Notes: generated by a model from the sequence alone, not told the origin. Shown: positions 42,702-45,361, counted from the stretch's first letter. The stretch: DNA of 64,000 nt from Candidatus Bandiella sp. (GCA_965229725.1 OZ245923.1:994992-1058991), one strand, 5' to 3'. Numbers and translations: made by a program.

Positions 42702-44102
42702 ATGAATATAGGAAAATTACAATCGTTTGATATATCAATAATAAGTGGCTATCTGCTCGCTTGTTTAATAATTGGGCTCTATAAGTCAGCTAAGGTTAAG
42801 GGCATCAAAGATTATGCCATTGGAGATAAAAATTTTTCAACCCTAACCATTATTTCCACCATATTTGCAACCTTTATGAGTGCCAACCAAATCATTGGCA
42901 AAACTGAACAAATTTATAAATTGGGCTTAGTGTTTGGAGCAGCAATACTATTTGTTCCCCTTAACTGGATTATAGTAAAAAATATTTATGCAAAAAATAT
43001 TGGCAGATTTGATGGATGTATATCAATGTCTGAGATAATGGAAAAACTGTATGGAAATTGCGGCAGTATTATATCAAGTATAATTATAATCATTACTGCC
43101 ATAGGTATTTTATCAGTACAGGTGACAGCAATCGCTTATTTATTTCAATATTTCCTAGATTTATCATATACCCAAGGAGTACTAATAGGAATTGGTGTAT
43201 TGACTTTTTACTCTGCTCTGGGTGGTGTGCGAGCTGTAGCATTAACTGATGTATTTCAATTTTTAATTTTCTTTTTAATACTTCCTATAGCTTGTGGGTA
43301 TGCATATTTTAAAGCAGGTGGTTATGAAAACATTATGACTTCGTTGCCAGAATCACACTTTACACTATACAACAATGGCTCTCTATTACTATTTTTCAGT
43401 TATGTATTTTTTATTGCAACACCAGCCATTCATGCTCCGTATGCACAAAGGTTGTTAATGGCAAAAAATAAAAAACAACTAACAGATTCATATAACATAC
43501 TCATTATTACCTCTTTATTTTTTGCATGCATAGTATTTACTTTGGGATTTTGCATACGGGCAATTTACCCAGATATAGAAGCTAAAATGGCTCTATATCA
43601 TTTTGTTGGAGGTTTGCCTCCTATATTTATTGGTGTAATGATTGTGGGCATTCTCGCAGTAATAATGTCAACCGCAGATTCTTGGCTTAATTCTTTAAGT
43701 ATTGTAGTTTCACATGATATAATAAAAAAAGCATATCCAAAAATTGATGGAAAAACAGAACTATTAATAGCAAGAATTTCAACATTTTTATGTGCTTTAT
43801 TAGCGGTCATTATATCACTTTCAAGTGGAGCTATATTCAAATTGCTAATATTTTTTGAAGCTTTCTATTATGCAACCATTTTAGTGCCTTTTACAGTAGG
43901 ATTTTTTAAATTCAAAACCAATAATGTATCATTTTTAGCAAGTGTTTTTTGTGGAATCCTTTGTACTATAATAACAGAGCGCTCCACTGGTGAATTTGGG
44001 GTTATAAGTTTGACTTTTGGAGTAACAGGAAGTGCAATTGCACTGTTTGGCGCACATTATTTTCAAGTGAAAATTGGAGTAATAAAAAAAAAAATACTTT
44101 GA
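42702..44102 (+). CDS. Sodium:solute symporter (PutP/SSS) half of a split symporter-kinase gene
   Basis: GGVRAVALTDVFQF, AQRLLMAK, AVIMSTADS; about 13 TM segments. Confidence 0.9.
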   Translation: MNIGKLQSFDISIISGYLLACLIIGLYKSAKVKGIKDYAIGDKNFSTLTIISTIFATFMSANQIIGKTEQIYKLGLVFGAAILFVPLNWIIVKNIYAKNIGRFDGCISMSEIMEKLYGNCGSIISSIIIIITAIGILSVQVTAIAYLFQYFLDLSYTQGVLIGIGVLTFYSALGGVRAVALTDVFQFLIFFLILPIACGYAYFKAGGYENIMTSLPESHFTLYNNGSLLLFFSYVFFIATPAIHAPYAQRLLMAKNKKQLTDSYNILIITSLFFACIVFTLGFCIRAIYPDIEAKMALYHFVGGLPPIFIGVMIVGILAVIMSTADSWLNSLSIVVSHDIIKKAYPKIDGKTELLIARISTFLCALLAVIISLSSGAIFKLLIFFEAFYYATILVPFTVGFFKFKTNNVSFLASVFCGILCTIITERSTGEFGVISLTFGVTGSAIALFGAHYFQVKIGVIKKKIL

Positions 44103-45361
44103 ATCTTAGCTCTAAACTTCCGCTCAAAACTAAAATAAAGCAATTTATTAATGATTGCACAAACATAAAGAAAAATGTACAAGATAGTAAGCTGACTTAT
44201 TATATCTTTGGCTTATTTAGTATGGGATTAAATATACCGCTACTCATTTTAGGATTCTCTCCATTTAATGATCCAATTAATTCCATAGCACAAGCACTAC
44301 ATTTTGCAAATCTTCTTCTTGCTATATTATTAATTTCTTATGAATTTTTTACTAAAGGAAAATACCCTGTCCTTTTATGGAATATGGTGTTGTTCTTTGC
44401 ACTTTCCTTAACAGGATTTTACTTTTTTGTAGTTAGTGGTTTTGATGCCATTTGGGGTATTAATTGTTTTATATCCATGATCGCATTATTTTTATTAATA
44501 AACTCATATCATGCATTATTATTTACCATCATATCAATTACACTAATTGCTACTTTTTTTAAAATTACCTCTCTGTATAAAATTTATTTACCCCAATTAA
44601 ATCCTCATATTAACAATACATTTCTTTCAACATACTCGACTTTATTGTTATGCATTGTGATTATATACATTGTTTTTCAAAAATTTAGAGAAGATAAGGT
44701 GAAACAATATGCATTGGAAACTTTAGCACGCTCAATAGCTCACGATGTTACAACTCCTCTCAGTATTGGGCTACTAGAAGTGAAATTAATAAGAGATGCC
44801 TTAAAAGCAAAAGATTTTAATAAAATTAAAGATCATATTGATAATTTAGAAAAAAGTAATACCAAGGCTATGCAAGACATTGACATCATGCTGAGTGCTA
44901 CAAAAATTCAAAACAATGATTTGCCATCTGATTGGGGAGAATATTCATTGATGCAATGTGTAAATCAATCGTTAGATGAGTATAAAATGACAGAAGAGCA
45001 AAGAGATCTAATATCTTTTCTTAATCAAAAAGAATATGCTGGAGATTTTGTTTTCACTGGTTCTCATACATTATTAAAGCACGTACTGTTTAATTTAATC
45101 AAAAATGCATTTAAGTATGCCGGAAGTACAGCAAAAATAGAATTATTTATTAAAAATAATAATTTACATGTCAAAGACAATGGCTATGGATTAAATAATG
45201 ATATTACTAATCATCTATTTGAACGATATATTACTACTCATGGATATGGTATTGGTTTAAATTTTTGTAAGCAGGCAATGATTAAAATGAATGGAGATAT
45301 AAAATACAATGCAAGTTTTACTGGGGGCACTGAATTCATTCTTATTTTTAATCAAGAATAA
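44099..45361 (+). CDS. Membrane sensor histidine kinase half (HisKA plus HATPase_c)
   Basis: SIAHDVTTPL (H box), NLIKNAFKY (N), VKDNGYG (G1), GYGIGL (G2). Weak TTG start overlaps the upstream stop, in the -1 frame. Confidence 0.88.
   Translation: MNLSSKLPLKTKIKQFINDCTNIKKNVQDSKLTYYIFGLFSMGLNIPLLILGFSPFNDPINSIAQALHFANLLLAILLISYEFFTKGKYPVLLWNMVLFFALSLTGFYFFVVSGFDAIWGINCFISMIALFLLINSYHALLFTIISITLIATFFKITSLYKIYLPQLNPHINNTFLSTYSTLLLCIVIIYIVFQKFREDKVKQYALETLARSIAHDVTTPLSIGLLEVKLIRDALKAKDFNKIKDHIDNLEKSNTKAMQDIDIMLSATKIQNNDLPSDWGEYSLMQCVNQSLDEYKMTEEQRDLISFLNQKEYAGDFVFTGSHTLLKHVLFNLIKNAFKYAGSTAKIELFIKNNNLHVKDNGYGLNNDITNHLFERYITTHGYGIGLNFCKQAMIKMNGDIKYNASFTGGTEFILIFNQE

Follow-up and report, generated by a model that had tools for sequence, protein, structure and literature searches.

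The window analysed here is a 64,000-nucleotide (nt) stretch of DNA from Candidatus Bandiella sp. (GCA_965229725.1 OZ245923.1:994992-1058991), and the locus in question, at positions 42,702 to 45,361, carries a sodium:solute symporter of the SLC5 type (SSS) and a histidine kinase that are separated by a frame break in a run of eleven adenines (A11). By sequence reading and the list of open reading frames (ORFs), ATG 42702 opens an ORF of 466 amino acids (aa) that ends ATA-AAA-AAA-AAA-ATA-CTT-TGA (..GVIKKKIL) across the A11 run at 44084-44094, and the kinase lies in the -1 frame relative to the transporter, where it is listed from TTG 44099 to 45361 (420 aa). This confirms the frame arrangement described in the original prediction, which was made from the sequence alone. 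The transporter ORF matches Pfam SSF over aa 38-414 (E 5.9e-24, above the gathering score), and the kinase ORF matches HATPase_c (E 3.7e-17) and, weakly, HisKA. Adding one A in silico gives an uninterrupted protein of 886 aa (junction ..GVIKKKNTLNLSSK..), which is the exact orthologue length, and the predicted continuous A12 product is thereby borne out. The two halves are otherwise intact, as had also been proposed: apart from the break in the A run, the window copy has no stop or indel, and its catalytic residues are kept. A11 is the longest homopolymer of the window (31.6% GC), followed by A9 and T9, and the bare motif is no rarer than chance (mean 3.1 in dinucleotide shuffles, at least one in 80 of 100). 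The non-random part is that the frame break falls within an A run at the border of two conserved modules. We consider, with moderate confidence, that the locus represents an early, non-adaptive gene fission or decay at a mutational hot spot, with possible leaky rescue, and not a regulated switch.

A search with the mended protein returned full-length relatives of exactly 886 aa at 91, 87, 87 and 86% identity, which align without gaps, and a further series of fusions of 860-950 aa with identity down to ~25%. The source names of these relatives are Candidatus Midichloriaceae, Jidaibacter, Cyrtobacter, a Peranema endosymbiont and similar Rickettsiales. Genome scanning located 78 family loci, with 3 paralogues per genome in the two nearest metagenome-assembled genomes (MAGs). 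The Peranema symbiont and a Jidaibacter MAG have at least 8-10; the family is multi-copy and was found solely in Rickettsiales-like symbionts. The orthologous loci and the window have the upstream gene order gshB-rpe-glpX-recO in common. Given the intact orthologues and this conserved synteny, the fusion is ancestral and the window copy derived, and the 466-aa ORF is the complete transporter module of the ancestral 886-aa protein. In the literature searched, we found no description of a Midichloriaceae family combining SSS, six transmembrane (TM) helices and a kinase, nor any mention of its linker tracts. Frameshifts at homopolymers of AT-rich endosymbionts, phase-variable tracts and fusions of SSS with kinases are each already known.

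From N- to C-terminus, the ancestral protein joins an SSS transporter of 13 helices, a lysine-rich disordered linker, a membrane block of six helices and a histidine kinase made of DHp and CA domains. In the AlphaFold (AF2) model of the 91% orthologue (mean predicted local distance difference test score, pLDDT, 78), the SSS helices occupy residues 8-458, the linker drops below pLDDT 50 at residues 465-495, and the helices of the second block lie at 497-517, 525-550, 557-578, 583-599, 602-626 and 640 onward, the last membrane helix continuing directly into the DHp helix (residues 640-702). Hydropathy segments place the second block at kinase-ORF aa 35-197. Foldseek matched the transporter part to SiaT (5nva, target-normalised TM-score (TMt) 0.81) and also to CHT1 and SGLT, and the kinase core to HK853 (TMt 0.74). 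The LuxN model gives the best score for the core. H681, N798, N802, D826, G828, G850 and G852 are invariant in alignments A1 and A2, while G830 is invariant in A1 and at least 90% conserved in A2; all are intact in the window, and they were assigned to the N box (N798/N802), G1 box (D826/G828/G830) and G2 box (G850/G852).

The original prediction had likened the locus to SSS-kinase fusions of the CbrA/CrbS type, and the existence of such fusions was upheld by the family described above, but the type assignment was not. The SLC5/STAC kinases CbrA, CrbS (MxtR) and RpuS (PMC7918813, PMC9100948, PMC6591292, PMC7096432) likewise combine an N-terminal 13-helix SLC5/SSS domain with a C-terminal DHp-CA kinase ("transceptor"). 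In contrast, the window family has a disordered linker and a six-helix block in place of PAS and a detectable STAC domain, is multi-copy and restricted to Rickettsiales-like symbionts, and has a kinase core nearest the LuxN model. Pfam searches gave no PAS family between transporter and kinase even at E<=1, and no match at E<=1 for residues 459-660 with a library in which the presence of the STAC model is unconfirmed. Also unlike CbrA, CrbS and RpuS, there is no adjacent response regulator at the window locus or among the called neighbours of the orthologous loci. The absence of a nearby response regulator had been pointed out before, and it holds for the whole 64-kb window, in which tblastn with CheY, OmpR, CtrA and two family receiver domains gave nothing convincing (the best match lies in an MFS transporter ORF). 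Membership of the CbrA/CrbS group was therefore rejected, on the missing PAS domain and the different middle region. Judged from the models, the family probably works like the CbrA/CrbS transceptors, yet outside the SLC5/STAC group as defined (PMC9100948, PMC7918813).

Stand-alone SSS paralogues of ~500 aa also occur, and they end 30-45 aa past the same GAHYxQ motif. A Jidaibacter MAG has the SSS module alone, as tandem arrays of two and three ~460-aa copies (L038:7630-10675; L044:3268-7679), and other proteins (P0057, P0063, P0070, P0073) have it fused to GGDEF or RelA/SpoT-HD domains. These solo and alternative arrangements suggest that SSS is a portable input module for several signalling outputs. 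By analogy with the stand-alone paralogues, the tandem SSS-only genes and CbrA, in which a truncated or isolated SSS domain shows normal transport (PMC7918813), the 466-aa product is likely to be viable as a transporter.

Across the junction, the sequence of intact orthologues is ATAAAACAAGAAACATCTTTG or ATAACACGAGAACAACCTATA, and the window is one base shorter (26 nt against their 27); as spelled in the alignment, the orthologues have ATAAAACAAGAAACATCTTTGCATCTT or ATAACACGAGAACAACCTATATATCTT (27 nt) and the window ATAAAAAAAAAAATACTTTGAATCTT (26 nt). Orthologues L001-L009 and L087 all have an interrupted sequence at the tract position, and the nearest other lineages, at 8-13% nucleotide divergence, are without the tract. 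Three G/C-to-A changes built A12, namely CAA to AAA (Q to K), GAA to AAA (E to K) and ACA to AAT (T to N), in a linker that evolves fast (ratio of nonsynonymous to synonymous divergence, dN/dS, 0.3-0.5). The tract is accordingly young and specific to the lineage. Conservation of the tract in sister strains, which the original prediction had named as a check, was not observed; the sequence there is interrupted and in frame.

Table 1 Features of the split transporter-kinase locus, in window coordinates
Feature	Position	Strand	Basis or remark
Intergenic region 3' of recO	42539..42701	+	RNA contigs start 42667-42693
SSS (SLC5-type sodium:solute symporter) ORF, 466 aa	42702..44102	+	ORF list, Pfam
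Zone with 0 and -1 frames both open	43994..44099	+	kinase-frame upstream stop 43991-43993
GGAG, 4-7 nt 5' of the slippery heptamers and 19 nt 5' of TTG 44099	44076..44079	+	
A11 homopolymer, codons K462-K464 of the disordered inter-module linker	44084..44094	+	one base below in-frame A12
Kinase-module ORF, 420 aa (linker rest, six hydrophobic helices, DHp, CA), intact in the window	44099..45361	+	same ORF in L094
TGA stop of the transporter frame, overlapping kinase-frame TTG 44099-44101 (TTGA)	44100..44102	+	
Second membrane block, ~6 TM helices, fusion residues ~497-660	44189..44680	+	AF2, hydropathy
Histidine-kinase core	44681..45358	+	invariant columns in alignments, Foldseek
Phospho-accepting His681 codon CAC	44741-44743	+	
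AATCAATC tandem repeat	44963..44970	+	lineage-specific G-to-C change (E to Q)

A frame break in a poly(A) run could also be programmed, with A11 acting as a dedicated slippage or -1 frameshift site that fixes the ratio of transporter to fusion. As in dnaX-type -1 frameshifting (Atkins et al., PMC5009743), A_AAA_AAA occurs in the 0 frame, here as two overlapping heptamers (44084-44090 and 44087-44093), and the downstream ORF is in the -1 frame. Both frames are open over ~109 nt, and a -1 shift or an A added in RNA anywhere in the double-open zone (Table 1) would join the modules; A11 is the sole slippery element there. PMC5574713, and PMC3017870 where it quotes Tamas 2008, put an 11-A run within the range of frequent RNA-polymerase insertions, and both products are plausible proteins. 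However, the site is lacking in the 86-91% identical orthologues, which encode the fusion directly, and a conserved recoding site is therefore excluded. Unlike dnaX-type sites, the window tract lacks site conservation, a stimulatory hairpin and a properly spaced Shine-Dalgarno-like element. No downstream structure was predicted when 44070-44190 was folded (z = -0.55; 64 of 200 shuffles fold as well). By what is generally known of dnaX-type sites, the spacing of the only GGAG present is poor for stimulating a -1 frameshift, and it is poor for a Shine-Dalgarno sequence of TTG 44099. In other lineages the split falls in an A4 or A5 run incapable of recoding, and RNA is depleted past the transporter stop (see below). 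A recoding site, one of the options in the original prediction, is thus very unlikely, and a conserved one was rejected on the missing tract in the orthologues and the lack of a predicted stimulatory structure.

Long homopolymers are the commonest site of consensus error, and A12 would restore the exact orthologue length; the true genome might accordingly carry A12 and an intact fusion. The A11 run was gap-free in Logan contigs of 10 independently assembled runs (X1, X4, X8, X10, X11, X12, X13, X14, X17 and X18). These runs cover two host organisms, at 53x and ~1200x depth, as well as metagenomes of estuary, seawater and plankton samples that come from unrelated studies and date from 2020-2025. 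Two Joint Genome Institute (JGI) assemblies, L094 and L095, carry A11 and are 100% identical to the window across the whole gene, and by exact look-up the 466-aa product is also encoded by a second haplotype (E386Q, F236L) in a European Nucleotide Archive (ENA) assembly. Altogether, A11 is seen in at least 13 data sets with at least two single-nucleotide polymorphism (SNP) haplotypes, which differ by ~0.3% or less. Because independent contigs, JGI assemblies and the ENA haplotype all show A11, an artefact is effectively excluded, and with it the assembly error considered in the original prediction. Strains with C and strains with G at 43857 both carry A11, and the frameshift is therefore older than their split.

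The original prediction proposed that the cell could toggle between a stand-alone transporter and a transport-coupled sensor. At such a contingency locus, slipped-strand mispairing would flip the gene between a fused (A12) and a split (A11 or A13) state, and the window would represent the OFF state. Homopolymeric tracts are a general on/off device (PMC2831843), and here, as in those loci, the length of an intragenic homopolymer decides translation of a downstream domain. A11 is long enough for hypermutability, one added A gives the exact ancestral length, and the kinase half is intact with low dN/dS. However, length polymorphism was absent from the A11 data sets, whatever their host, haplotype or year: no contig of the window lineage has another tract length, no A9, A10, A12 or A13 product was found by exact look-up in ~15 billion proteins, and a search of JGI metagenomes for intermediate relatives or further tract lengths returned nothing beyond one already-known locus. 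A11 is fixed in every sample of the lineage examined and, as no other length was found, no DNA-level phase switch is visible. Unlike a contingency tract, the window tract is young and is not kept in sister lineages, its target is a transporter-sensor fusion and not a surface antigen or restriction system, and the OFF state still gives a whole transporter. In addition, the A11 strain of run X12 has a second, non-reversible frameshift (see below). For the window locus, a contingency switch is thus possible but unlikely.

Breaks at the same linker recur across the family, in which transporter and kinase lie in different frames in at least four other, independently broken lineages. In loci L087-L093 (e.g. 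L087:6001-8660) a separate loss of one base shortens A5 to A4 in CAAATAAAA(A)TTGGG, 20 bases 5' of the window tract position; the transporter ORF ends at 460 aa (..QIKLGY*) and the kinase frame is open to its end. In Tara and other marine metagenomes, 17 contigs carry this 460-aa SSS ORF; the seven loci read (L087-L093) are all A4 and identical across 2661 nt. In Candidatus Bandiella numerosa (L045:560-800) the linker is split by a change from A6 to A5 (TCAAAAA-TGAAG, -1), and in RefSeq its kinase half (416 aa) is annotated as a sensor histidine kinase in its own right. The linker also switches frame in MAG loci L039 and L053 (a Jidaibacter MAG and a Rickettsiales MAG). P0121 (666 aa) was considered as a further disruption and dropped, since its divergence lies at a contig end.

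The homologue in Candidatus Aquarickettsia rohweri has A11 with a -1 break (L035:11360-11370), and different assemblies show A11, A12 (fused, 881 aa) and A13 (L035; L096, L097 and L098, gene position 1362), while the homologue in the Trichoplax H2 endosymbiont has T4A10 (L099:4361-4375). These genes otherwise show 0-7 differences in ~2640 sites, so that near-identical genomes carry ON (A12) and OFF (A10, A11, A13) alleles at a tract analogous to contingency loci. The tract is a few codons from that of the window; because the proteins are 46% identical and intermediates lack a tract, the two runs arose independently. This convergent variation speaks for a contingency locus, although the Aquarickettsia lengths come from assemblies and may partly be consensus noise; the A10-A13 series represents either genuine hypervariability or noise at a heterogeneous tract. 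The proposed toggle is not supported at the window locus, where only A11 was seen, and finds its support in the same linker of the Aquarickettsia homologue. Among 39 full-length family genes, 8 of the 20 A/T runs of at least 8 nt fall in the linker, which makes up 5.5% of gene length. As these runs roughly account for the clustering of breaks, it approximately reflects mutational opportunity, and a selective filter is not needed.

Selection on the two halves was estimated as Nei-Gojobori dN/dS on the window branch, with L001 as sister and L002 as outgroup. Values were 0.030/0.141 = 0.22 for the transporter half and 0.027/0.189 = 0.14 for the membrane-block-plus-kinase region. These comparisons suggest no kinase-specific relaxation, with the frameshift being either recent or tolerated. 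Strain polymorphism is too sparse to serve as a selection test (6 nonsynonymous and 2 synonymous changes in the SSS half, 4 and 4 in the kinase half). In run X19, whose contigs leave the A tract uncovered, a cluster of seven SNPs in 95 nt (44553-44647) matches the allele of L001, the 91% orthologue, throughout and probably marks a recombinant stretch or a more basal strain. Apparent joints linking 43277 with 45308 and 44339 with 44489, together with a 45-nt contig of high depth at 44810-44843 in several runs, were discarded as short AT-rich matches to other loci.

Further damage has been observed in two places. The A11 strain of run X12 has lost one AATCAATC copy (4 bp at 44963; one contig, depth 5.5), which introduces a stop at kinase-ORF codon 291; this deletion is not seen in X10, X11, X14, X16, X17, X18 or X19. 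In L008:10001-12661 (MAG SGMAG-76) the linker is intact and codon 111 has changed from GAA to TAA (E111*), with 10 of the 13 differences from the 99.5%-identical sister L087 being nonsynonymous. Either the gene has been inactivated here independently or the MAG consensus is wrong at this codon. For L008, NCBI annotates a 774-aa protein that begins past the stop. Together, the X12 deletion, the L008 nonsense allele and the L087-L093 split point to dispensability of the gene; sister genomes have ~3 paralogues each.

Expression of the two halves was compared using metatranscriptome contigs at >=99% identity from twelve runs. The transporter half is covered by 24 RNA contig pieces and the kinase half by 2, as against 9 and 8 for an intact orthologue in four runs of another host (Fisher p = 0.007 versus the window). 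The 24:2 ratio fits polarity, or decay of untranslated mRNA, past the premature stop. RNA pieces also pile up at 42667-43100 (15 of 26, with starts at 42667-42693), a pattern that may reflect strong 5' bias, attenuation of the transcript or stability of a 5' fragment. Because RNA contigs start there, the promoter and 5' untranslated region presumably lie in 42539..42701. The decay foreseen as an alternative in the original prediction thus gains from the X12 deletion, the sister nonsense allele and the RNA ratio, but a simple old pseudogene does not agree with the low kinase dN/dS and the retained catalytic residues.

The split might instead be functional, with two co-expressed membrane proteins that both still work and a kinase translated from TTG 44099 by termination-reinitiation. 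TTG overlaps TGA (TTGA) behind an A-rich leader, and the 6-helix kinase module appears topologically self-sufficient, as judged from its helices and hydrophobic segments and from the 13-helix SSS topology (PMC7918813). In each of the four or more independent linker splits the kinase ORF is still open, and two of these splits fall in short runs (A4 and A5) at which rescue by slippage is implausible; RefSeq lists the Bandiella and Aquarickettsia halves as separate proteins. Moreover, CbrA without its SSS domain still signals if over-expressed (PMC6591292); since its halves stay active apart, a split gene is conceivable. However, there is no Shine-Dalgarno sequence within 5-13 nt of TTG, and the TTG is not evidence of an evolved start because it is the conserved Leu467 codon of the fusion. 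RNA is scarce past the transporter stop, the X12 deletion and the sister-strain nonsense allele argue for dispensability, and the density of linker breaks is close to that of A runs, which requires no selective filter. Functional fission is therefore quite unlikely.

Several observations nevertheless weigh against early, non-adaptive fission or decay. The tract lengths come from assembled contigs and not raw reads, and minority lengths within samples are invisible in them. The RNA pieces are few and of low depth; 15 of them lie within the initial 400 nt, no piece crosses the tract, and the control runs for the ratio are only guessed to be RNA. The kinase half is unrelaxed (0.14 versus 0.22), with 420 open codons and every catalytic residue kept, which fits a recent event and continued use equally. 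The Aquarickettsia alleles show that such tracts can toggle, and because splits in other lineages keep intact kinase ORFs, fission could be functional.

According to the non-adaptive reading that we favour, AT-biased substitutions would have turned linker codons into A12, and replication slippage would then have deleted one A to give A11. The main product would now be the stand-alone 466-aa transporter. Single-A insertion by RNA polymerase rises exponentially with run length and is the favoured direction (PMC5574713), and the kinase module may be made from minority transcripts that gain an A in this way. Ribosomes are known to slide on lysine poly(A) stretches. A -1 slide along A11, or re-initiation at low efficiency where TGA and TTG overlap, could provide alternative routes to the kinase. 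By analogy with these systems, the kinase module is probably made at a low level only and, with only such minority routes available, sensor output would be largely uncoupled or lost. As a mutational hot spot, the linker would be the place where the break arose, and a lesion there would be tolerated because two self-contained modules remain. Reversion by a +1 slip is possible in principle, but the split state acts as a fixed one in the lineage, and the kinase half has begun to acquire irreversible damage.

The closest precedents are the poly(A) frameshifts of Buchnera and Blochmannia (Tamas et al. 2008 PNAS; Wernegreen et al. 2010; Williams & Wernegreen 2010, PMC3017870), which likewise occur in AT-rich, reduced intracellular genomes, the window being alphaproteobacterial. 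In both cases a run of 10-11 A holds a single-base indel, the rest of the gene is intact without excess dN/dS (the X12 strain having its extra 4-bp deletion), the state is common to geographically separate populations, and the required correction is one added A, the direction favoured by RNA-polymerase slippage. The insect-symbiont genes give a mixed mRNA pool with corrected transcripts, ~30% by the Tamas 2008 figure quoted in PMC3017870, whereas none of the window RNA contigs spans the tract. In contrast to those genes, the window frameshift is not common to sister species, which lack the tract, and one strain of the window lineage is already secondarily damaged. The uncorrected window product is also plausibly functional and not a truncated enzyme, because the break lies at a domain boundary.

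Synteny between the window and its orthologues ends right after the kinase stop. Past this point the relatives have a 599-aa gene, then PBP2, then a 159-aa gene and lon. In the window, the next features are three small ORFs on the minus strand within 45362-47889, one of them with an ankyrin repeat (46192-46443), a pyridoxal phosphate-dependent decarboxylase at 46558-47889 and an 886-aa ORF at 47954-50614 that looks like clpB, judged by eye; the lon, 159-aa and PBP2 block lies instead at 10064-14753. The 599-aa gene found 3' of the fusion in L002-L004 (L002:12763-14562) is represented by two ORFs of 169 and 419 aa in L006:8763-10571 and L007:3461-5269, and may be another split gene in the clade. 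Elsewhere in the window, an 883-aa ORF between rpsM and ftsJ (35008-37659, minus strand) has no Pfam domain at E<=0.001 and is 767 aa in L002.

For annotation, these results argue for recording one ancestral fusion gene disrupted at poly(A), and neither two unrelated genes nor a silently mended one. The case shows AT-biased mutation building a slippery run in a disordered linker and cutting a membrane sensor into its modules. The window locus alone is a fairly ordinary endosymbiont homopolymer frameshift, and the family pattern, especially the Aquarickettsia alleles, is more noteworthy: the family is a natural experiment on the fission and fusion of a transceptor and on the need for a tether between kinase and transporter. 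If the Aquarickettsia variation is real at the read level, it would constitute a heritable on/off device on a nutrient sensor of a coral-associated parasite and its relatives. A broader and rather unlikely proposal is that in marine Midichloriaceae, Aquarickettsia and the window lineage among them, the lysine-rich transceptor linkers repeatedly evolve long poly(A) runs as reversible heritable switches with a transcriptional leak, choosing between plain transporter and transport-coupled sensor, with the window in the OFF state. If true, this would mean stochastic rewiring of nutrient sensing in obligate intracellular bacteria with almost no transcription factors.

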